Shown in pieces: positions 12,272 to 23,621 of a stretch of 24,000 bases of DNA. The number at the start of each line of letters is the position of its first letter. The stretch's first letter is position 1. A program made the position numbers and the translations under genes. The notes below the pieces were generated by a model. It searched no databases. It saw nothing but the letters and a program-made list of their open reading frames with translations, and was not told the DNA's origin. This stretch comes from Sediminivirga luteola (lineage in GTDB: Bacteria > Actinomycetota > Actinomycetes > Actinomycetales > Brevibacteriaceae): contig NZ_BMFY01000006.1 of the NCBI RefSeq assembly GCF_014639315.1, forward strand, positions 170,510-194,509, in the 5' to 3' direction.

Positions 12272-13879
<1,608 letters not shown>

Positions 13880-14023: not shown

Positions 14024-15751
14024 TTATGGCGCGTGTGATGGCGTCGTGTCCTCAGGCGGGCAGAGATGGACGGTGCGGTCGGCGATGCTGCTGGCCCAGT
14101 GCAGGTCGTGGGTGGCGACCAGCACCGTGCCGCCCGCGCCGGTGAAGTCGTTCAGCAGTGTGTTCAGCCGCTGCATGCCTGCCAGGTCCCGGCCGAGTGT
14201 CGGCTCGTCCAGGAGCAGCGCTGCGGGTTCGAGCAGCAGCGCGGAGGCGATCACGAGGTCCTTGCGCCGGGCGGGGGAGAGGTCGTAGGGATGCGTGGCG
14301 GCATCGTGTTGGAGGTCCAGCCGTTCCATGATGCCGTCCACCTGTTCGTGCCGGCGTGCCCGCAGGCGTGTGCGCTCCGTTCGGCGATGCCTGGCAAGCG
14401 GCACGGCGCCTTCCAGTTCCGCGCGCGCCGATGCCGCCGAAAGCTGCATACCGGGGTCCTGGCCCACCCAGGCCAGATGGCGGGCACGCGCATGGAGCGG
14501 CAGCGCGCCCAGCTCCGTGCCGGCACGATCGATGATGCTTCCGGCGACGTCGTCGACGGGTCTCTTGCCGCGCCGGCGACCCCGGGTGAGTCCACCCGTC
14601 CTGCGCCGGCCGGAGGCGGGGATGTCCTCGGGCGAGGTCCCCGGGCGGTCTGCCGGACGGTCTGCCGGGCGGTCTGCCGGACCGAGCAGCCCGGCCAGAG
14701 CTGCCAGCAGCGTGGACTTCCCGGACCCGTTCGCGCCCAGCAGCGCCGTGGTGGTCCCGGCGAGGAGATCGAGGTCCACGCCGTCGATGACGGTTCTGCC
14801 GCCGCGCCGCACCCGCAGTCCGCGGACGCGCAACAGGAGATCCTGCCCGGTGCCTTCTTCCCCGCCGTCACGTCCGGGCGCCTGTACGCCGGGCAGCCGG
14901 GAGGTGTCGTGGACGCAGGAGGAGCTTCCGGCCCGGAAAGGAGCGTCTTGTGGAGCAGAATGGGCTGAGCCCGGTACCGGACCTGCCGCCGGCCTGGTAT
15001 CCCAGACCCCGTAGCGGCTGAGCAGGGCAGGCTGGGCAGTCACGTTCCCGGTGCCGGTCAGACGGCCCCGGTCCAGGAGCAGCACGTGGTCGCAGGCGGC
15101 GCTGAGCTCATCGTGCTGATGGCCGGTCAGCAGTACCGCACCGCCGGCCTGGCGGTGCGCGTCCAGAGCGCGGAGCAGATGCGCGCGCGCCCGGGCATCG
15201 AGGGCCAGGCCCGGCTGGTCCAGGATCACCAGGGGCGGGGCGAGCACCAGCAGCCCGGCCAGCGCCGTCAGCTGGCGTTCCCCGCCGGAGAGCGTGCTGA
15301 CGTCCCGTCCGGCCAGATGCGCGATGCTGAGGGCGCTCATCGCTTGCCCGACGGCTCCCGGCAGGCTGTCCCGGAGCATGCCGGTGAGCCGAGCTGGCAG
15401 GGAGACCTCTTCCGCGGCGGATCTGCTCAGCCCGGTCAGCTGCGCCTCGGGATCGTCGCCAAGGAGCGCGGCGCGGGCGTTCCTGTTCACGGTGCCGCTG
15501 TGCTCCCCGCGGTCGCTCAGGAGCCCCGCGGCCAGCCGCGCGAGCGTCGACGTCCCGGAACCCTGAGGCCCCAGCACCGCGATGCCCTCGCCCGGCCGGA
15601 TGACCAGGTCGATGTCCCTCAGCGCCGCGGCGTCTGCGTCCCGGTAGCGGAAGCCTGCCTTCTGCAGCGTCAGTAGCGGGATGGGGTTGCCTGGCTCAGC
15701 GCGGATGCTCCGGCTACCGGGGCCAGCCGGCGGCAGGCCTGTGGCGTTCAT
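14024..15751 (-). CDS. Fused double ATPase of an ECF transporter (EcfA-EcfA'/YkoD-like), asymmetric nucleotide sites
   Basis: 575 aa with two ABC nucleotide-binding domains. NBD1 has GPQGSGTST, LSGGERQ and LVILDQP. NBD2 has GANGSGKST, LSPARRK, LLLDEPT and VATHD. An ATGA overlap with the upstream T-component gene spans 15748-15751. Confidence 0.85.
   Translation of the reverse strand: MNATGLPPAGPGSRSIRAEPGNPIPLLTLQKAGFRYRDADAAALRDIDLVIRPGEGIAVLGPQGSGTSTLARLAAGLLSDRGEHSGTVNRNARAALLGDDPEAQLTGLSRSAAEEVSLPARLTGMLRDSLPGAVGQAMSALSIAHLAGRDVSTLSGGERQLTALAGLLVLAPPLVILDQPGLALDARARAHLLRALDAHRQAGGAVLLTGHQHDELSAACDHVLLLDRGRLTGTGNVTAQPALLSRYGVWDTRPAAGPVPGSAHSAPQDAPFRAGSSSCVHDTSRLPGVQAPGRDGGEEGTGQDLLLRVRGLRVRRGGRTVIDGVDLDLLAGTTTALLGANGSGKSTLLAALAGLLGPADRPADRPADRPGTSPEDIPASGRRRTGGLTRGRRRGKRPVDDVAGSIIDRAGTELGALPLHARARHLAWVGQDPGMQLSAASARAELEGAVPLARHRRTERTRLRARRHEQVDGIMERLDLQHDAATHPYDLSPARRKDLVIASALLLEPAALLLDEPTLGRDLAGMQRLNTLLNDFTGAGGTVLVATHDLHWASSIADRTVHLCPPEDTTPSHAP
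14645..14680 (-). repeat. In-frame 12-bp x3 tandem repeat encoding (PADR)3 inside NBD2 of the ECF ATPase
   Basis: The plus strand reads gcggtctgccgg / acggtctgccgg / gcggtctgccgg. The minus-strand translation is PADRPADRPADR. It lies just after Walker A and is followed by a very basic insert (SGRRRTGGLTRGRRRGKRP). Confidence 0.9.
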
Positions 15752-16515
15752 GGGTGCTCACTCCCGGCCGCCAGGGCGGGGATCAGGTCACTTGCCGCGG
15801 GAAGTGGCAGCCAGCCGCCGATGGAGGCCGCGACCACGGCGAGGGAGAGGGCCGGCAGTGCCCAGCGCAGCGTCCGCTGCAGCCGTCCATCCGGATAGCG
15901 CCGCCAGGGCGCCGGCCGGCGGGCTGTGCCGAAGCCGCGCTGGACGAGGGCGTCGTGCCGCTGATCCAGATCGGTCAGGGAGGATAGCAGGAGCCCCGCG
16001 GCGATGCCGCCCAGAAGCCGCAGCCGCACGCCGAGCCGTCTGGTGTCATGGCCGCGCGCCGCGCGGGCGGCGAGCGTGTCACCGAGTCGCTGCCGCAGTC
16101 GCGGCACCATTCCCACCGCGGCGGCGCAGACGTATGCCAGGCCGAGCGGCAGCCGCAGGACGATCAGCGCGTCGAAGACGCGGCCGGCATCGGCGCTCAG
16201 GGCGAAGACCAGGCAGACGGAGACCATCGCCGCGACCCGCAGCCACAGCTGGGCGGCCACCGCGGCGCCCTCCGCCGTCAGCCGTGCCGGACCCCATGAC
16301 CACAGGACCTCGGCGGGGCCCGGGTAGAACAGCCCCTGGACCACGCCGACGACCAGCAGCATGGGACCGGCGAGGACAAGCATGCCCAGGAGCCAGCTGC
16401 GAAGTCTCACCCGCGGCGAGCAGAGGGCGGCCGCGGCGGAGAGCAACAGCACCGCCGCCGGCATCAGCGGGGAGGCCACCCCGTAGACGAGCAGCATCGC
16501 GCAGGCCAGCAGCAC
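15748..16515 (-). CDS. ecfT: ECF transporter transmembrane (T) component, EcfT/CbiQ family
   Basis: The protein is hydrophobic and multi-pass. It has two Ala-Arg-Gly coupling-helix motifs (LAARAARGHD and ALVQRGFG). The stop overlaps the ATPase start. The first canonical in-frame start after the S-component stop is GTG 16515. The N-terminus may extend further; see the finding on the EcfT start. Confidence 0.7.
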   Translation of the reverse strand: MLLACAMLLVYGVASPLMPAAVLLLSAAAALCSPRVRLRSWLLGMLVLAGPMLLVVGVVQGLFYPGPAEVLWSWGPARLTAEGAAVAAQLWLRVAAMVSVCLVFALSADAGRVFDALIVLRLPLGLAYVCAAAVGMVPRLRQRLGDTLAARAARGHDTRRLGVRLRLLGGIAAGLLLSSLTDLDQRHDALVQRGFGTARRPAPWRRYPDGRLQRTLRWALPALSLAVVAASIGGWLPLPAASDLIPALAAGSEHP

Positions 16516-16607
16516 GAGAGCCGTGGCCGGATGCAGGAGACCGGGTTCCTCCGGCTCCGGGACGACTATCGCGACCGTCCCGGAACCTGGGAGCCCGGAG
16601 CCGGCGG

Positions 16608-17486
16608 TCAGGGCAGGTCCTCCCCGGAACGGGTACCAGCGCCGGCGGACCGTCCGGGGACCTTCGGCGGGAGGGAGTGAGCCGTGAACGCGAACCGGCT
16701 GCGCAGACGCTGGGGCACGGCACGGAAGGCGAGGAAGGCCACCGCGAAGACGATCGCCTTGTCGATGATGTCCGAGGGGATGGCCTGCAGGGTCGTGGCG
16801 GCGAGCATCGAGGCGCCGGCGGCCTGGAACGCCGCGACCACGCCGCCGGTGCCGACCCCCAGACCGCCGCCGAAGACATAGGCGGCGACCGGCGCGCCGA
16901 GCAGACCAGCGGGAATGCCGGCCACGCCTCCGGCCAGGATGGCCGTCCAGAGGCGGCGGAATGCTCCGGCGCGGGCTGCCCAGCCGGCGGCCGCGCCGAT
17001 GAACGCCGCACCGGCGGAGAACGGGATGAGGCTCGGGTTGATGGTGACGCCCCAGATGAGGTTCGTCAGGACGCCGGTGAGGGCACCGGCCGCGGGACCG
17101 GCCAGGACGCCGATGAGCACGGTGCCGAGGGAGTCGAGGTAGAGCGGGATGGGGGTGAGCGTGCCGACGATCTGGCCGATGACGACGTTGAGCGCGATCA
17201 TGACCGGCAGCAGTGCCAGCACAGTGGCGGGGATGCGGGGCAGCGCCCCGGCGGCGATCAGGAGCGCGCCGGCCAGATAGCCGGCCATGACGGCGAGGGT
17301 GGTGTGGCCGAGGTCGGCGCCCAGGGTGGCCGGCTGGGTGGCGAGGATCCACAGGTAGGTGCCGGCGATGACGAGAGCCCCGGCGGCGATGAGCAGGGTG
17401 GACCACAGCGGCGCTGCGGGAGGTGTGGCTGCGGGGCCCGCCGGAGCGGCGGACCCCTGTCCAGATGCGGGATCGTTGCTGGTCAT
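16608..17486 (-). CDS. ECF transporter substrate-specific (S) component, specificity unknown
   Basis: 292 aa from ATG 17486, which has AAGGA 8 nt upstream. It is a Gly/Ala-rich multi-pass membrane protein. The segment LYLDSLGTVLIGVLAGPAAGALTGVLTNLIWG is typical of ECF S components. The gene lies immediately upstream of the T and A-A' genes. Confidence 0.7.
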   Translation of the reverse strand: MTSNDPASGQGSAAPAGPAATPPAAPLWSTLLIAAGALVIAGTYLWILATQPATLGADLGHTTLAVMAGYLAGALLIAAGALPRIPATVLALLPVMIALNVVIGQIVGTLTPIPLYLDSLGTVLIGVLAGPAAGALTGVLTNLIWGVTINPSLIPFSAGAAFIGAAAGWAARAGAFRRLWTAILAGGVAGIPAGLLGAPVAAYVFGGGLGVGTGGVVAAFQAAGASMLAATTLQAIPSDIIDKAIVFAVAFLAFRAVPQRLRSRFAFTAHSLPPKVPGRSAGAGTRSGEDLP

Positions 17487-17554
17487 GAGGTGTCCTTCGG
17501 GGCGAGATGGATGGATGGTGGCAGTGCGGTCGGCGCGGGTGTCAGCGCCCGGCC

Positions 17555-18466
17555 TCAGCCGTGCTGACGGTAGGTGGGCTCGTGCCGCTTGAGTGTGTTC
17601 ACCACCGCGTAGGTGACCGGCAGCAGCAGGAACTCGACGGCGCACTTGTACACGAAGCCGAAGAGCACATAGCTGATGAAGTCCGCGCCGGGGATGATCC
17701 CCGCGAACGCGACGGTGCAGAAGATGAGGGTGTCCAGGAACTGGCCCGCCACGGTGGAGCCGGACAGGCGCGCCCAGAGGTGGCGTTCGCCGAAGCGGCG
17801 TTTGATGCGCACGATGATGAACGAGTTCAGCAGCTGGCCGACCAGGAACCCGGCCACGCTGGCCAGCAGGATCCGGGGGTAGAAGCCCAGGACCGCCTCG
17901 AAGGCCGCTTGATGCTCATAGCCGGGGCCGGGTGGGGCGATCATCACGGCGTAGAAGGTCAGCGCGGCGACGATCTGCACGCCGAAGCCGACCAGGATGG
18001 CCTTGCGGGCGGCGGCGAAGCCGTAGATCTCGCTGATGACGCCGCCGGCGATGTAGGCCAGGGGGAAGAGGAACGCGCCGCCGTCGGTGACGATCGGACC
18101 GAAGGAGATCACCTTGGTCGCGGAGATGTTCGAGACGAGGAAGAAGGCGACCAGGAGGGCCATCAGGATCGCGTAGAAGCGGCCCTGGGAGGAGGCGAAG
18201 AGAGCCTCGCCTGCCGAGGGGCGGCGGGCCTCAGAGCCGGTGCCGGCGACCGGGGCTCCGGCCGGGGAACCGGCTGGAGCGGGCCGGTCCGTGGCGGTCG
18301 CGGTCGCTGTGGTGCCGGCTGCGGCGCGGCTGCCGGTGCTGCCGGGGTTGCCGCGCTCTCCGGGCGGTCCGGGCGCAGCATCGTGGTGCCGGGTGGTTTC
18401 GCTGGTGTCCGCGGGGCCCGCCGGGCTGGCGGACCCCTGCCCAGATGCGGGATCGGCGCTGGTCAT
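17555..18466 (-). CDS. yhhQ: COG1738/YhhQ (DUF165, VUT family) transporter, queuosine-precursor-transporter-like, with ~95-aa disordered N-terminal extension
   Basis: By eye the C-terminal ~205 aa align to E. coli YhhQ. Matching stretches are SNISATK...DGGAFLFPLAYIAGGVISEIYG, PRILLASVAGFLVGQLLNSFIIVRIK and STVAGQFLDTLIFCTVAF. ATG 18466 overlaps the nucleoside hydrolase stop (ATGA). Confidence 0.8.
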   Translation of the reverse strand: MTSADPASGQGSASPAGPADTSETTRHHDAAPGPPGERGNPGSTGSRAAAGTTATATATDRPAPAGSPAGAPVAGTGSEARRPSAGEALFASSQGRFYAILMALLVAFFLVSNISATKVISFGPIVTDGGAFLFPLAYIAGGVISEIYGFAAARKAILVGFGVQIVAALTFYAVMIAPPGPGYEHQAAFEAVLGFYPRILLASVAGFLVGQLLNSFIIVRIKRRFGERHLWARLSGSTVAGQFLDTLIFCTVAFAGIIPGADFISYVLFGFVYKCAVEFLLLPVTYAVVNTLKRHEPTYRQHG

Positions 18467-19578
18467 GATGTCGGTCCTCTCATCAGTACGGTCTGCAGGT
18501 GCTCCAGGAAGCCGCCGGCGTCGATGCGCCGGATCACTTCCGCGTTGGGCGTCCGGTTCCAGCGGCCGAGCCAGTCGGCCACGGTCTCGCCGCGGGTCAG
18601 GGTGCCGTGGAGCTCGACGTCGATGGCGACGCGTGCGGTCTCTGCCCAGGGGATTATCCCGTCTGCGCCGCGGTCAGGCGAATCGTCGGCGGTCCCGTCG
18701 TCGGCGGTCCCGCGGCCTGCCGCGTGCGCCCGCGCCCAGCCGATAGCGGCGGCCAGCACGTACGGATCGTGGATATGCGCCAGATAGCCGTGGCCGTCTG
18801 ATTCGTGGAACTCGAAGTAGAACCTCAGTGCCGCAGCGAGCTGTTCCAGCCAGTGCTGCCACCGGTCGTCGCGCGGTCCGGGCTCGCGGACCGCGTTTCC
18901 GGCCGCGTCGTGCCCGGTGCCGTCCCCGAGGATCGCGTCGAGCCGTTCCGGGGTCATCACGACGGCTTCCGTGGCCTCGAGCGGCCCGATGACCGGCAGG
19001 CTGTCCGCCCGGCCGAAAGCGGCGAAGACGCGGGCCGCGGCCTCGGGATCGCAGCTGATGTTCCACTCGGTGGTCGGCCGGGTGTTCCCGCGGTAGTTGA
19101 ACGCGCCGCCCATCACGAAGAGCCGCCGGATGAGCGCGGGCAGGCGCGGTTCGATCTCCAGGGCGAGCGCCAGGTTCGTGGCCGGTCCCAGCAGGACGCC
19201 GACGAGTTCACCCGGATGGGCTCGGGCGGCCTCCACCCAGGCGCGGGCGGCGTCGCGGGCATCGGGCACGGCGTCCTGCGGCAGGACCGCGTAGCCGGTT
19301 CCGGTGTCCCCGTGCGTGTCCTCGGCATACTCCGCCTCGCCGGAGAGCGGCAGGTCCGCGCCCGGATGCACCGGGACGTCGGCGCGGCCGGCCAGGGCGA
19401 GCCAGCCGAGCGCGTTGCGGACCACCTGCCCGGTGGGCACGTTCCCGCCGCTGGCGGCCACTCCGGTGATCAGCACGTCCTCCTGGCAGAGGGCGTAGCC
19501 GAGGGCGATGGCATCGTCGATGCCGGGGTCGCAGTCGATGAAGAGCGGGATCATGCTCCCCATTCTGCCGGTAGGCAC
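18463..19578 (-). CDS. Inosine/uridine-preferring-type nucleoside hydrolase (IUNH family)
   Basis: The N-terminal signature is LFIDCDPGIDDAIAL (DxDxxxDD). Further motifs are LLGPATNLALAL, HDPYVLAAA and FVMGGA. GTG 19578 is the longest ORF start. ATG 19563 or ATG 19554 (giving MIPLFIDCDPG) are equally plausible. Confidence 0.85.
   Translation of the reverse strand: MPTGRMGSMIPLFIDCDPGIDDAIALGYALCQEDVLITGVAASGGNVPTGQVVRNALGWLALAGRADVPVHPGADLPLSGEAEYAEDTHGDTGTGYAVLPQDAVPDARDAARAWVEAARAHPGELVGVLLGPATNLALALEIEPRLPALIRRLFVMGGAFNYRGNTRPTTEWNISCDPEAAARVFAAFGRADSLPVIGPLEATEAVVMTPERLDAILGDGTGHDAAGNAVREPGPRDDRWQHWLEQLAAALRFYFEFHESDGHGYLAHIHDPYVLAAAIGWARAHAAGRGTADDGTADDSPDRGADGIIPWAETARVAIDVELHGTLTRGETVADWLGRWNRTPNAEVIRRIDAGGFLEHLQTVLMRGPTS
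18682..18711 (-). repeat. In-frame 15-bp x2 tandem duplication encoding (GTADD)2 in the nucleoside hydrolase
   Basis: The plus strand reads atcgtcggcggtccc / gtcgtcggcggtccc. It lies within an apparent surface insertion (HAAGRGTADDGTADDSPDRGADG). Confidence 0.85.
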
Positions 19579-19590
19579 GGACAGGCGGCC

Positions 19591-20802
19591 TCAGCCGCTC
19601 CAGGCCGCGAGGCATCGGGCCATGACGCGGAAGGGCAGGCTCTGAGCATTCCGACCGCCGGCCTGGTCCACCGTCCCGGCGAGATCCACGCCGAGTTCCG
19701 GGCAGGAGAAGAGCCAGCTGCCGGTGGCACCGGAGTGTCCCACGAGGGTGACCGCGCGCAGCCGGCCCGCCACCGGGATCACGGTCCGGAAGATCATCGT
19801 GCCCATGCCATATCGCAGCACGGGGATGTTCCGCAGCCGGTTGCGCCGTTCGGTCAGCAGGGCCGCTGTGCGGGTGCTGCGGAAGAGATCACCGCGGCGC
19901 AGCGCGCGCTGAAAACGCAGGAGATCCCCGGTGGTGCTGATCAGATCGTTGCTGGAGGCGATCAGGGAACCGAGATTCACGGGATGACGTCCGGCGCAGA
20001 TGGTGGTGGGAGGCGGTGCCGGATCGTCGCCCGTGAGATGCGGGCCGGCCGCGCCGTGCCCGGGTGCGGCGCCGTGCCGTGGAGCTGGACTGTGCCCGGG
20101 GTGCCAGGTGTGGTGCAGTCCGGCCGGTCCGGTGATCCGTTCGGCCAGCAGCCCGGCGAAGTCCTGTCCCGTCACGGTCTCCAGGATGCGGATCAGCAAC
20201 TGGAAACCGGTGTCCGAATAGCGTGCTTTCTGGCGGGACGCGGAAAGGTCCTGCGGGGCGAAGTGCCCTCGCTGCTGCTCGCGGGTCGTCCTGATCATGT
20301 CCTCGAAACTCCAGGACGTGTCCTGGCCGGCGGCGAGCCGGGAGTAGAGGCTCGGGCCGTCGCTACGACGCTCGAAATGATCCGGCAGCCCGGAGGTGTG
20401 CGTGGCCAGGTGCCGCACCGTGACGGCGGGCGTGTGATCGGTTCCCCGCAGGGTGTGCAGCCCGGTGGTGACGTCCGGCGGCAGTACGCCGGTGATCGGA
20501 GCTGCCAGATCGACCTCGCCGCGCTCGTGCGCCTGCAGCAGCAGAGTCACGATGAATCGCTTGGTGACGGAGGCGATGAAGAAGGGGCGGCCCGGATCCG
20601 GAGGCCCCGCCTCATCGGCGGCACCTGCGGCGGCGGACCACCGGAGGCTCCCGTCGGCACTGGCGACGGCCACCGTCGCGTGGTGCAGGCGCTGCCCTCC
20701 CCGGCGCGCGATGAGCTTTTGCAGCACACGTTGCAGTCGTGCCTGCGCGTCCGGCCGGGCGGTGTTGTCGCCGGCGGGGACCACGAGCGGCGGCCTGTCC
20801 AT
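19591..20802 (-). CDS. Beta-lactamase-family (class C/PBP-like) serine hydrolase
   Basis: 403 aa. ATG 20802 has GAGGAAGGGAG upstream. The SxxK motif is FIASVTKRF, the YxN-like box is ARYSDTG, and the KTG-like box is VGHSGATG. The stop lies 12-36 nt before the nucleoside hydrolase start. Confidence 0.8.
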   Translation of the reverse strand: MDRPPLVVPAGDNTARPDAQARLQRVLQKLIARRGGQRLHHATVAVASADGSLRWSAAAGAADEAGPPDPGRPFFIASVTKRFIVTLLLQAHERGEVDLAAPITGVLPPDVTTGLHTLRGTDHTPAVTVRHLATHTSGLPDHFERRSDGPSLYSRLAAGQDTSWSFEDMIRTTREQQRGHFAPQDLSASRQKARYSDTGFQLLIRILETVTGQDFAGLLAERITGPAGLHHTWHPGHSPAPRHGAAPGHGAAGPHLTGDDPAPPPTTICAGRHPVNLGSLIASSNDLISTTGDLLRFQRALRRGDLFRSTRTAALLTERRNRLRNIPVLRYGMGTMIFRTVIPVAGRLRAVTLVGHSGATGSWLFSCPELGVDLAGTVDQAGGRNAQSLPFRVMARCLAAWSG

Positions 20803-20830
20803 GACGCTCCCTTCCTCACTAGATGTATGC

Positions 20831-20851
20831 GATATGTCTATTAGACATATC
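20831..20851. promoter_or_regulatory. 21-bp perfect palindrome GATATGTCTA-T-TAGACATATC, candidate PadR operator in divergent promoter region
   Basis: Read directly from the sequence. It sits in a ~40-bp island of roughly one-third GC within a ~70% GC genome. It lies between the operon start (20802, minus strand) and the padR start (20882, plus strand). It contains ATGT-N7-ACAT, close to the ATGT-N8-ACAT dyad described for PadR-family operators. Confidence 0.6.
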
Positions 20852-20881
20852 TATGAGAGTCAAGCCGCTAGGATTGCACCT

Positions 20882-21442
20882 GTGGCACATGTGATTCTGG
20901 GGCTCCTCCTGATCGCTCCGCGGAGCTTGTACGACCTGATCAAGGACTTCGAGGCCGGGGTGGGTCTCTTCTACAGCGCGAGCGCGGGGAGCATCAAGCG
21001 TGCCCTGGATGGACTCCTGCGGGAAGGGCGGATCGAGGTCGCGAGCACCGAGCGCTCCGGGCGAGGCCGCAAGACCTACCGCGTCACCGACTCCGGCAGG
21101 GAGGAGTTCCGCAGCTGGATGACCGGGGACGTGACCGGCACGGATCTGGAAACTGCGGCCCTCGCGCGGCTGCACTTCCTCGGCTTGCTGGAAGCGGGAG
21201 AACGGCCGCTCGTGCTGCGCCGCATCCAGGCGCGCTATGCCGCCGATCTCGCGCGTCTCACCGCCCTGGAGGAAGAACTCAGCACGGCGGAGGTGCCGCC
21301 GGAGTTCCACGACATCGCGGCATACCAGCAGGCGACTCTCGACTACGGCATCGCCACGCTCCGCTTCGCGCTGGACTGGTTCCAGCGTATTCCCGGCAGT
21401 GCCGAGCCGGCAGAACAGGCGCGAGAGAACCCAAGGGACTGA
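20882..21442 (+). CDS. PadR-family transcriptional regulator (two-domain PadR-1 type, ~186 aa)
   Basis: The product reads VAHVILGLLLIAPRSLYDLIKDFEAGVGLFYSASAGSIKRALDGLLREGRIEV...RKTYRVTDSGREEF, a winged-HTH of PadR type, followed by a helical C-terminal domain. I chose GTG 20882. TAGGAT at 20869-20874 would place a transcription start at about 20881, giving a leaderless mRNA. The upstream ATG 20834 would put the palindrome inside the CDS. Confidence 0.8.
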   Translation: MAHVILGLLLIAPRSLYDLIKDFEAGVGLFYSASAGSIKRALDGLLREGRIEVASTERSGRGRKTYRVTDSGREEFRSWMTGDVTGTDLETAALARLHFLGLLEAGERPLVLRRIQARYAADLARLTALEEELSTAEVPPEFHDIAAYQQATLDYGIATLRFALDWFQRIPGSAEPAEQARENPRD

Positions 21443-21540: not shown

Positions 21541-21781
21541 ATGAAGGCCTATGGGATCGATCCGCGGCTCTACACCACCGAACTCCATCATGTCCGGTAC
21601 CGCGTCAACTTCTGGGACAAGAACATGGCTTCCGATGAATGGGAGCTGGACGAGTCCGACGTCGATGAAGTCCTGGCATGGGTGGAGGACAACGCCAAGG
21701 GCCGGACGTACAGTGTGTGGGCGGTGGTGCCGGACGGCAACCGCACGTCGCCGATGATGGTTCGCCGAAGACCCGGCCTAA
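21541..21781 (+). CDS. Small acidic hypothetical protein (~79 aa) requiring a +1 frame change near 21757 to terminate; possible frameshifted gene
   Basis: The frame from ATG 21541 has good codon bias. It reads MKAYGIDPRLYTTELHHVRYRVNFWDKNMASDEWELDESDVDEVLAWVEDNAKGRTYSVWAVVPDGNRTSPM. That frame has no stop until 22836 and runs antisense through the convergent gene. The +1 frame from 21758 reads WFAEDPA-TAA (21779-21781). TAGCCT at 21529-21534 sits exactly 6 nt before A21541, a leaderless geometry. Confidence 0.45.
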
Positions 21782-22725
21782 CGCGTGCGGTGGCGCCCTG
21801 CAGCGTGTTCCGGCCGCCGGGCGAGCGCGTCCAGCCGGGCCTGCCACGTCACCCGGCGGCCGCTCAGATCCGGTGCGAGCGCCACGGGCTCGGACTGATC
21901 GGCGGCCCGCCCGTCCGTCCCGGCGTCGGCCACCCAGCCGGTCACCGTCTGCAGACCGCGCAGCGCGCTCATGCACCACGCCTCAGCGCCGTGCAGATCC
22001 GCGGGACGCACGCGCTCGTGGATCACCGGGATGCCGTCCTCGACGGCGAACCCCTCCATCAGAGCGCGAGTGACCGAGGGAAGCACGGGACCTGCCGGCA
22101 CGCCCAGATAGAGCCTGCCCCGGGCATCGTCCCGCCACCACACCAGCGCGCTGTAGGCGCCCTCCAGGACGCAGCCCTCCGCATCGAGCAGCACCGCTTC
22201 ATCGGCGCCGTGCTCCTGCGCCCGGGCCCGCAGCCGGCCCAGCGGCGCCAGGTCGGGGCCTTTGGTCTCCGGATGCCGCCGCGGATCCGGTCCGGGCACG
22301 CTCCACAGCGAAACGGCGCCACTCGTCGCCTCCGGTGCCGGCCGGAGATCCCACCGCAGGCGCTCATCGGCGCCCCAGTCGCAGACGATCCGGGGGAACC
22401 AGCGTCCCCGGCTGGGGAACCGTGCCGGAAGCCAGGCCAGGAACGCCGCGAGTTCCTCATCGGCAGGGTCGCCGGGGTGCGTGCGCAGTGCCCGCACCCC
22501 GGCGGAGAACCGCGCCAGATGATGTTCCAGGCCCCGGACCCGGCCGTCCTCGATCAGCCACGAGTCCTGCACCGGGCCGGGGCCATCGGCGTGCGTCCCG
22601 GCGCCCGGCCGCGGATCATGGAGCGCTCGCGTCTGGCCGCCCGGCCGTGGGTCCTTGGCCGGCGCCGGGCCCTTACCTGCAGCCCGCGCGCTCCGCTCCG
22701 GCCCGTCCTGCCCAGGCGCGCTCAT
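21778..22725 (-). CDS. Aminotransferase class IV family protein (aminodeoxychorismate lyase-like)
   Basis: 315 aa. Motifs are HHLARFSAG, RRHPETKGPDLAPL (putative PLP lysine region), ADEAVLLDAEGCVLEGAYSALVWW and LPSVTRALM. An ATGA overlap with the HAD gene spans 22722-22725. The gene lies downstream of pabB. Confidence 0.7.
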   Translation of the reverse strand: MSAPGQDGPERSARAAGKGPAPAKDPRPGGQTRALHDPRPGAGTHADGPGPVQDSWLIEDGRVRGLEHHLARFSAGVRALRTHPGDPADEELAAFLAWLPARFPSRGRWFPRIVCDWGADERLRWDLRPAPEATSGAVSLWSVPGPDPRRHPETKGPDLAPLGRLRARAQEHGADEAVLLDAEGCVLEGAYSALVWWRDDARGRLYLGVPAGPVLPSVTRALMEGFAVEDGIPVIHERVRPADLHGAEAWCMSALRGLQTVTGWVADAGTDGRAADQSEPVALAPDLSGRRVTWQARLDALARRPEHAAGRHRTR

Positions 22726-23621
22726 CGCGGCGCGCCGGGCTCCTCGGCCGGGACGTCCTCGGGTGAGCCGTCCGAGGAGCCGGATACGCTCGGATCCGCA
22801 GGCCGATCCTCCGTTCCGGCCGCGCCAGATTCGTGAACATCCCCGGAGGAGGGGCGAACCAGCTCGTGCACGCCGGAGATGATCTCGGAGGGACGGAACG
22901 GGTACTTGGCGATCTCGCTGTCATCGGAGATGCCCGTGAGCACCAGGATGGTGTGCAGGCCCGCCTCGATGCCGGCGATGACGTCGGTGTCCATCCGGTC
23001 GCCGATCATCGCCGTGGTCTCCGAGTGGGCGCCGATGCGGTTGAGCGCCGAGCGGAACATCATCGGGTTCGGCTTGCCCACCACGTAGGGGTGCCGGCCG
23101 GTCGCCTTGGTGATCAGCGCGGTGATCGCGCCGGTGGCCGGCAGCACGCCGTCCTGGCTGGGGCCGGTGGCGTCCGGGTTCGTCGCGATGAATCGCGAAC
23201 CGCCCAGGATCAGCCGGATCGCCTTCGTGATCGCCTCGAAGGAGTAGTTGCGGGTCTCACCCACCACGACATACTCCGGGTCGCTCTCAGTCATGATGAA
23301 GCCGGCCTCGTGCAGTGCCGTGGTGATGCCGGCCTCGCCGACGACGAACGCGGAGGCACCGGGGCTCTGCCGGGCCAGGAAGTCCGCCGTGGCCAGAGCC
23401 GAGGTCCAGATGCGCTCCTCGGGCACCACCAGCCCCGAGGCTCGCAGCCTGGCGGAGAGATCGCGCGCGGTAAAGATCGAGTTGTTCGTCAGCACCAGAT
23501 AGGGCGCGTCCTCGCGGCGCCATTGCTCCAGCAGTTCGGCGGCGCCGGGTAGCGCATGGTTCTCACGGACGAGGACGCCGTCCATATCGGTGAGCCAGCT
23601 GGTGATATGACTGCGATCCAT
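22722..23621 (-). CDS. HAD-IIA family hydrolase (NagD-like phosphatase) with acidic/Ser-rich C-terminal tail
   Basis: 299 aa. Motif I is LTDMDGVLV. Other motifs are LVLTNNS, GKPNPMMF and MIGDRMDTDVIAG. Confidence 0.85.
   Translation of the reverse strand: MDRSHITSWLTDMDGVLVRENHALPGAAELLEQWRREDAPYLVLTNNSIFTARDLSARLRASGLVVPEERIWTSALATADFLARQSPGASAFVVGEAGITTALHEAGFIMTESDPEYVVVGETRNYSFEAITKAIRLILGGSRFIATNPDATGPSQDGVLPATGAITALITKATGRHPYVVGKPNPMMFRSALNRIGAHSETTAMIGDRMDTDVIAGIEAGLHTILVLTGISDDSEIAKYPFRPSEIISGVHELVRPSSGDVHESGAAGTEDRPADPSVSGSSDGSPEDVPAEEPGAPR

Follow-up and report, generated by a model that had tools for sequence, protein, structure and literature searches.

Two side-by-side units at one Sediminivirga luteola locus: a PadR–serine hydrolase module and a nucleoside hydrolase–ECF transporter cassette with queuosine or queuine as candidate substrate

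When a divergent regulator gene faces a tight row of genes, does the row form one regulated system with one substrate? The question is raised by a locus of Sediminivirga luteola (family Brevibacteriaceae, order Micrococcales), where six minus-strand genes, for a serine hydrolase, a nucleoside hydrolase, a YhhQ-type transporter and the three proteins of an energy-coupling factor (ECF) transporter, run away from the gene for a PadR-family regulator. The window analyzed is a stretch of 24,000 nucleotides of high-GC DNA (contig NZ_BMFY01000006.1, positions 170,510–194,509), and all coordinates count from its first letter. The initial annotation had proposed that the six genes form a single system under PadR control, in which a beta-lactamase-fold enzyme processes the substrate; this central claim does not hold. 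The locus consists of two units side by side, PadR with the serine hydrolase and the nucleoside hydrolase with the ECF transporter, and we give an even chance to the reading of the second unit as a queuosine/queuine salvage system, the substrate being predicted.

Gene families were assigned by Pfam and NCBIfam/TIGRFAM profile scans of the window proteins, and all seven genes are also called in three independent S. luteola assemblies (NCBI annotation). All seven lie at or near the positions first proposed for them, each has a family match, and the family assignments of the initial annotation were borne out by the profile searches (PF00144, PF01156, PF02592, NF045596, PF02361, PF00005 and PF03551). 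The features are as follows.

20882–21442, plus strand: PadR-family regulator, 186 residues (PF03551, 2e-09; PF10400, 8e-07)
20831–20851, no strand: predicted PadR operator palindrome, read from the sequence
19591–20802, minus strand: S12/beta-lactamase-fold serine hydrolase, 403 residues (PF00144, 1e-41)
19567–19562, minus strand: CAGAAT box, 7 nucleotides upstream of the nucleoside hydrolase ATG at 19554
18463–19554, minus strand (alternative start 19578): nucleoside hydrolase, 363 residues from ATG 19554 (PF01156, 1e-79)
18405–18471, minus strand: direct repeat copy 1 at the yhhQ start, ribosome-binding site and first ~19 codons, 67 nucleotides
17555–18466, minus strand: YhhQ/QPTR (COG1738) transporter, 303 residues (PF02592, 8e-49; TIGR00697, 126.4 bits)
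17425–17491, minus strand: direct repeat copy 2 (the original) at the S start, ribosome-binding site and first ~19 codons, 67 nucleotides
16608–17486, minus strand: ECF S component, 292 residues (NF045596, 3e-32)
15748–16515, minus strand: ECF T component (CbiQ/EcfT), 255 residues (PF02361, 5e-14; TIGR02454, 3e-14)
14024–15751, minus strand: fused double ATP-binding cassette (ABC) ATPase (A-A'), 575 residues (PF00005, three matched stretches)

The composition of the second unit is clear from its conservation. S homologues were aligned, the alignment was used to fetch 80 reference-genome loci, and each locus was scored with the seven proteins of the window. In 66 of the 80 loci the nucleoside hydrolase gene immediately precedes S, and in 10 it stands at a greater distance upstream, on the strand of S; it is absent from three, and one has too little flank to tell. 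Among the 71 loci with enough flank, T was detected in 56 and the ATPase in 68. The cassette occurs in Nesterenkonia, Leucobacter, Brevibacterium, Pseudoclavibacter, the Arthrobacter group, Rothia and Corynebacterium, and also in Propionibacteriales (Micropruina, Propionicimonas, Arachnia and Propioniciclava). Neither a serine hydrolase-fold gene nor a PadR gene was found in any of the 80 loci, and YhhQ was found in one, after the ATPase gene in a Nesterenkonia metagenome-assembled genome (MAG; L002). The nucleoside hydrolase, S, T and fused AA' proteins make up a conserved actinobacterial cassette with a dedicated (group I) ECF importer.

PadR and the serine hydrolase have a distribution of their own. 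PadR starts at a GTG, a start fixed by orthologues that begin M/V-AHVILGLLL, and combines a winged helix with a C-terminal Vir_act_alpha_C domain (the NCBI call is also 186 residues); its matches to both PF03551 and PF10400 place it in the long two-domain PadR family. The 79-nucleotide divergent intergenic region holds the palindromic operator proposed in the initial annotation, GATATGTCTA-T-TAGACATATC, which is perfect over 21 base pairs (10+1+10) and whose core is a single site in the window even at three mismatches (0.03 expected by chance); the idea of a further PadR site close to the nucleoside hydrolase was rejected, as the window holds one site only. Orthologues of the serine hydrolase (58–63% identical) occur mainly in Streptosporangiales, Micromonosporales and Nocardiopsis. 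In each of the three orthologous loci inspected (Streptosporangium roseum, Microbacterium album and Micromonospora chokoriensis) a PadR gene encoding ~180 residues, 66–70% identical to that of the window, diverges from the hydrolase gene, and the intergenic region carries GAyATGTCTA-n-TAGACATrTC, equal to the window palindrome, which is therefore kept in four genera including that of the window. A TTGACT box upstream of the palindrome is common to the window and Streptosporangium. None of the three loci contains nucleoside hydrolase or ECF genes, and their flanks are otherwise unrelated. PadR and the serine hydrolase are an autonomous, widespread and conserved two-gene module with its own operator.

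The PadR repressor is predicted to bind the 21-bp palindrome between the two divergent genes and would control its own gene and that of the cytoplasmic S12-type serine hydrolase. This resembles PadR/PadC and LmrR/LmrCD, where a winged-helix PadR is likewise divergent from its target gene and a palindromic operator with ATGT...ACAT half-sites overlaps the promoter; the S. luteola pair differs in its target, an S12 serine hydrolase, and in a half-site spacing of 7 nucleotides, against 8 in the consensus PadR operator. The serine hydrolase has the S12/class-C beta-lactamase fold (PF00144) with its SxxK, Yxx and HxG motifs intact (S78-V-T-K, Y195-S-D and H356-S-G), and its nearest solved relatives are alkaline D-peptidase, other D-stereospecific S12 peptidases and DD-carboxypeptidases. 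The best explanation is that its substrate is unrelated to the transporter, with no tie of the enzyme to nucleosides.

The nucleoside hydrolase that opens the second unit is a cytoplasmic, divergent member of the inosine–uridine nucleoside hydrolase (IU-NH) family, scoring 148–149 bits on the RihA/RihC models (cutoffs 382–433). It has the QueK-type calcium-dependent IU-NH fold, with the calcium-binding aspartate cluster DCDPGIDDA at its N terminus; its C-terminal half is divergent, and it is 27% identical to a hydrolase encoded beside a short-S gene (the short S proteins are introduced below). It is a QueK-like candidate, and a changed base specificity is plausible because it lies far from RihA/RihC and its C-terminal half has diverged. 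In all nine closest loci (L001–L009, from Nesterenkonia, Leucobacter, Brevibacterium and Pseudoclavibacter) the sequence CA[GC]AAT stands 7 ± 1 nucleotides before the hydrolase start, with differing genes upstream, and in the window the CAGAAT box sits within the 36-nucleotide gap after the serine hydrolase stop codon. The box is a candidate −10 element of a putative leaderless promoter and, since it is conserved before the hydrolase start, the cassette probably keeps a promoter of its own.

The S component has a single curated family match, to the 'CD3073 family' model NF045596 (3e-32, 111.6 bits, positions 3–172 of 174), at a score below the equivalog cutoff of 180 bits for this family; by sequence S classes as a homologue of the family below equivalog level. 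S has no match in the Pfam scan at E ≤ 0.01, a relaxed scan gives PF12822 over the full length at 16 bits (threshold 30.7), and no match to QueT (PF06177/IPR010387) was found in the Pfam or NCBIfam scans. Among PDB entries the S-family profile matches FolT, the S component for folate (4e-06), and the AlphaFold2 model is all-helical (mean predicted local distance difference test score, pLDDT, 81), with helices at residues 27–50 and 60–84 before the core and pLDDT below 50 for residues 1–20; these matches and the model place S in the ECF-S superfamily. The model suggests two extra N-terminal helices ahead of a QrtT/CD3073-like six-helix core (residues ~90–265). This core is 31–36% identical to short PF12822 S proteins and ~35% identical to the S protein of a Klebsiella S-T-A-A' locus.

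The S operon also encodes T (PF02361) and, coupled to it by an ATGA overlap, two ABC ATPase domains in one 575-residue protein (two PF00005 domains). The first nucleotide-binding domain is degenerate, with a Walker A GPQGSGTS (Lys to Thr) at residue 61 and a Walker B LVILDQP (Glu to Gln) at residue 174, and the second is canonical (Walker A GANGSGKS). Eight loci from the Nesterenkonia/Leucobacter/Brevibacterium/Pseudoclavibacter clade share the Lys-to-Thr change, whereas both domains retain Lys in 38 Arthrobacter-type loci. Three tandem 12-nucleotide units (window 14641–14682) in the linker that joins the ATPase domains encode ADRP-ADRP-ADRP.

Many actinobacterial S proteins are named 'histidine kinase' by NCBI. 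An S-like membrane domain is also found at the N terminus of sensor histidine kinases (S-like + DUF4118 + PAS + HisKA + HATPase_c, in some cases also receiver domains), which explains these names; among the distant S homologues it is further fused once to an nSTAND1 NTPase and once to CbiQ (proteins with S-like fusions: P0145, P0146, P0151, P0155, P0156, P0163, P0167, P0169, P0187 and P0216). In the histidine kinases the domain may represent a ligand-sensing use of the ECF-S fold.

In S. luteola the cassette contains one further gene, yhhQ, which was inserted between the hydrolase and S genes by duplication of the S initiation region and in-frame fusion. The footprint is a 67-nucleotide direct repeat, 87% identical, that covers, in yhhQ as in S, the Shine-Dalgarno region and the first ~19 codons, its copies sharing GA(A/G)GGAC...TCATGACCAGC...GATCCCGCATCTGG in alignment; S is the donor, since the peptide MT..D..SGQG at its N terminus is conserved in S orthologues from other genera. 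The resulting YhhQ consists of residues 1–~19 copied from S, ~70 low-complexity linker residues and a Vut_1 core from about residue 95. A shorter start was considered and rejected, as there is no in-frame start codon before codon 102, which itself lies inside the first membrane helix. The first ~90 codons of yhhQ have an atypical codon-position GC pattern, and the orthologue in the Nesterenkonia MAG has no N-terminal extension. It is the repeat with S as donor, the lack of an alternative start, the atypical GC and the extension-free orthologue that together argue for insertion by duplication. In the MAG, yhhQ is ATGA-coupled to the ATPase stop codon; the gene has thus joined the cassette in two lineages and at different positions (after the hydrolase, after the ATPase), ATGA-coupled each time.

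The inserted protein passes the YhhQ/QPTR family model (TIGR00697, 126.4 bits against a cutoff of 50.95), which links it to the YhhQ/QPTR transporters of Escherichia coli and Chlamydia trachomatis; on the E. coli-type model it scores 50 bits (cutoff 252). Among its closest metagenomic relatives (46–66% identity), a tgt homologue is adjacent in six of the eight loci with enough flank (L095, L096, L097, L098, L099 and L104), a clustering with tgt as published for PF02592. The S. luteola gene differs from these transporters in being embedded in an ECF operon and in encoding the N-terminal extension of ~90 residues. Zallot et al. 2017 stated that they saw no physical clustering of yhhQ with ECF genes, and the S. 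luteola locus is a counter-example.

Some observations on the related loci may be added here. The actinobacterial-type TGTs encoded beside the YhhQ relatives in L095 (7713–9023) and L097 (2206–3441) read, by eye, GGALEKE where the E. coli enzyme has GGLAVGE, a segment that helps to set preQ1 versus queuine specificity. A ~475-residue protein is encoded on the opposite strand between the nucleoside hydrolase and S in L026, L031, L037, L045, L071 (and L033) and, judged from its sequence alone, resembles a pyridine-nucleotide-disulfide oxidoreductase; the hydrolase–S junction seems to be a recurrent insertion point, as for yhhQ in the window. In ~25 loci of the Arthrobacter/Pseudarthrobacter clade (L020–L076) only a few bases separate the end of an aldo-keto reductase gene from the hydrolase start codon downstream, and the cassette appears to be co-transcribed with this gene; the CAsAAT box is absent upstream of the hydrolase in these coupled loci. 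The neighbors in this clade (aconitase, DXS, RNase D, FadJ-like) were set aside as a functional clue, being housekeeping synteny.

What, then, would the cassette transport? In the queuosine/queuine salvage reading, the QrtT-like S would capture queuosine, possibly queuine or preQ1, outside the cell, the T-AA' module would drive its import, and the cytoplasmic hydrolase would split queuosine into queuine and ribose; a tgt elsewhere in the S. luteola genome, whose presence we infer, would insert the base into tRNA, and the spliced-in YhhQ/QPTR of the tgt-linked subfamily would add free-base uptake in this species. The reading is supported because the one curated family that S matches, CD3073, is labeled 'QrtT_CD3073' in Dataset S1 of PMC11130926, beside QrtT_CD1683 and QueT_CD2097; because YhhQ passes TIGR00697 and its nearest relatives adjoin tgt; because yhhQ joined the operon twice; because the order of hydrolase then S is that of queK-qrtT in the Clostridioides difficile queK-qrtT-queL operon; and because the S core resembles short S proteins that include the QrtTUVW-like Klebsiella locus. 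The idea of queuosine salvage in the initial annotation therefore gains evidence, from the CD3073-family S, the TIGR00697 YhhQ and the tgt-adjacent relatives of the latter, with the serine hydrolase no longer part of it. The statement made there that the gene combination matched no described system does not stand either: a QueK-type hydrolase, a QrtT-type ECF transporter and YhhQ/QPTR are all described salvage parts.

The closest parallel is the C. difficile operon (CD1682–1684) with the paralogue QrtT_CD3073. Both loci place a gene for a cytoplasmic IU-NH hydrolase before an ECF S gene, the S. luteola S matches the CD3073 family, and the proposed logic, import of queuosine followed by release of queuine, would be the same. 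The S. luteola locus differs in lacking the QueL lyase and the preQ1 riboswitch, in its dedicated in-operon T and fused AA' (C. difficile uses a shared ECF core), and in an S component with two extra N-terminal helices that is Pfam-invisible and falls below the family cutoff. A second parallel is QrtTUVW, reportedly a dedicated ECF system with Salmonella STY3230–3233 as its prototype and predicted to serve queuosine precursors; the Klebsiella locus would correspond to STY3230–3233 by its layout. The group I layout S-T-A-A' and the S core similarity are shared with S. luteola, whereas in the enterobacterial locus no nucleoside hydrolase gene is adjacent, the two ATPases are not fused, and S (~190 residues) lacks the extension.

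Published gene tables also count in favor of the queuosine reading. PMC11130926 found, among oral Micrococcales (n = 208), TGT in 133 genomes, QueA in 0, a QueK-like hydrolase in 66 and a recognized queuosine transporter in 0, and among Propionibacteriales (n = 113) the corresponding counts were 106, 0, 94 and 0; its authors treat the transporter gap in these groups as a missing-transporter problem, and Dataset S2 gives Brevibacterium paucivorans and most Micrococcales as TGT-only. The argument of the initial annotation that the substrate may be another one because many actinobacteria lack tgt is undercut by these counts, which include a Brevibacterium. The portions of the published supplements that were searched contain neither the S. 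luteola taxon nor its UniProt identifiers, and earlier transporter surveys would not have seen S, because it reaches 16 bits on PF12822 and often carries the name 'histidine kinase'. A tentative proposal, to which we assign somewhat less than an even chance, is that tgt-only Actinomycetota (Micrococcales, Propionibacteriales) import queuosine/queuine by means of this Pfam-invisible S family with its T-AA' and hydrolase, which would be their 'missing' importer, with yhhQ captured additionally in S. luteola. The gap itself is reported explicitly in a 2024 survey of queuosine transporters.

Several observations weigh against queuosine as the substrate. The score of S is that of a sub-equivalog homologue (111.6 bits, cutoff 180), tgt is adjacent to the cassette in none of 85 hydrolase/ECF loci (E. 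coli Tgt query), and no preQ1 riboswitch or other Rfam element was found in the window or in 10 related loci; a permissive Rfam scan upstream of the Klebsiella S gene gave no riboswitch either. The association of S with queuosine genes comprises the adjacent hydrolase (66/80) and YhhQ in the operon in two lineages, with tgt adjacent in none and no riboswitch. Table S2 of PMC11130926 places 18% of the PF12822 genes that cluster with hydrolases in organisms without queuosine. The operons of two short-S relatives resemble plain ribonucleoside catabolism: next to a repressor of RbsR-like type they encode a hydrolase close to RihA (394 bits, cutoff 433), a ribokinase-like PfkB kinase (226 bits) and an amidohydrolase. 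In Brevibacterium and Propionibacteriaceae, too, PfkB kinases are repeatedly encoded near the cassette. General ribonucleoside scavenging, in which the ECF transporter would import uridine, cytidine or inosine, the hydrolase would free base and ribose for ordinary salvage or catabolism, and YhhQ would be incidental or carry another base, draws on these operons and kinases, on the absence of adjacent tgt and riboswitches, and on the coupling of the Arthrobacter-clade hydrolase to an aldo-keto reductase among housekeeping genes. We nevertheless regard it as unlikely, if a serious contender. The RihA/RihC clusters (hydrolase, ribokinase and RbsR-type repressor) do encode a hydrolase that shares this fold next to an S-T-A-A' transporter of the same superfamily (L092 and L093), but those hydrolases are near-RihA (320–394 bits) and that of the window is not (148 bits, with its divergent C-terminal half and 27% identity to the short-S hydrolase), and the S. 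luteola locus has neither a ribokinase nor a LacI-type repressor. ECF systems are typically low-capacity micronutrient importers, which also weighs against common ribonucleosides, as do the double recruitment of the tgt-linked YhhQ subfamily and the QrtT label of the only curated family that S matches.

Two further explanations concern how the parts are joined. The six genes might still share PadR control as one operon whose target is a single decorated nucleoside; the beta-lactamase-fold enzyme would then strip an acyl or aminoacyl group before or after import (e.g. from a peptidyl-nucleoside antibiotic or an esterified queuosine). The spacing of the row is as first described: ATGA overlaps, read directly, join the nucleoside hydrolase to yhhQ (18466–18463) and T to the ATPase (15751–15748), 68 nucleotides separate yhhQ from S, and 92 separate S from T with the T start at GTG 16515 (the NCBI call of 255 residues), a start left ambiguous by a CTG at 16536 with better Shine-Dalgarno spacing. 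In favor of a single operon, only 12–36 nucleotides separate the serine and nucleoside hydrolases (36 with ATG 19554, the start favored by orthologue comparison), no terminator-like site was found between genes of the row (the four pattern matches either fall within coding sequence or are part of groEL, the convergent gene), and all three assemblies keep the arrangement. Read-through from the PadR-controlled promoter across the 36-nucleotide gap may occur, a point that counts against independent units. We nevertheless judge the single operon highly improbable, as the PadR/serine hydrolase pair is absent from all 80 cassette loci and the cassette from all three PadR–hydrolase loci, where the operator is kept all the same; the six genes plus PadR do not co-occur in these related loci. 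The nucleoside hydrolase, moreover, retains the CAsAAT box found where no such neighbor exists, and the serine hydrolase has peptidases and carboxypeptidases as its nearest relatives. It is improbable, too, that YhhQ serves as a second S component docking on the same T-AA', with one energizing module for two capture proteins. Its translational coupling inside ECF operons in two lineages, its S-derived N terminus and the classing of COG1738 with ECF/VUT S components in databases would fit such a role, and an ECF-embedded yhhQ runs counter to the survey of Zallot et al. 2017; the same study, however, found E. coli YhhQ to work in a host without ECF modules, and most relatives of the S. luteola protein adjoin tgt with no ECF genes nearby. 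The copied segment comprises a ribosome-binding site and a tail predicted to be disordered (residues 1–20 of the S model). We know of no docking role for such a tail.

The genes flanking the locus are housekeeping genes (window 12287–13879 and 21778–23621), groEL, which is convergent to the ATPase gene, on one side and, past PadR, those for a class IV aminotransferase and a haloacid dehalogenase (HAD) hydrolase on the other; the window holds no queuosine genes. All parts of the locus are of known kinds: a group I ECF transporter, a QrtT-like S, a QueK-like hydrolase, YhhQ/QPTR, PadR and an S12 hydrolase. What is new is an S subfamily that has eight helices, escapes Pfam, comes with its own T-AA' and is conserved beside a divergent hydrolase in two orders of actinobacteria, together with a yhhQ gene inside an ECF operon and the duplication footprint of its insertion.

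Whatever the substrate, the locus is an example of how a divergent regulator and a tight gene row can be two unrelated modules, and it preserves the footprint of a gene insertion in which a neighbor's ribosome-binding site and first codons were duplicated. Sequence surveys would miss the S component, which lies below Pfam and BLAST thresholds and is often mislabeled 'histidine kinase'. Many actinobacteria, skin and oral genera among them, must scavenge queuine yet have no recognized importer; if the queuosine/queuine salvage reading is true, the cassette would provide a concrete and widely distributed candidate to fill this gap.

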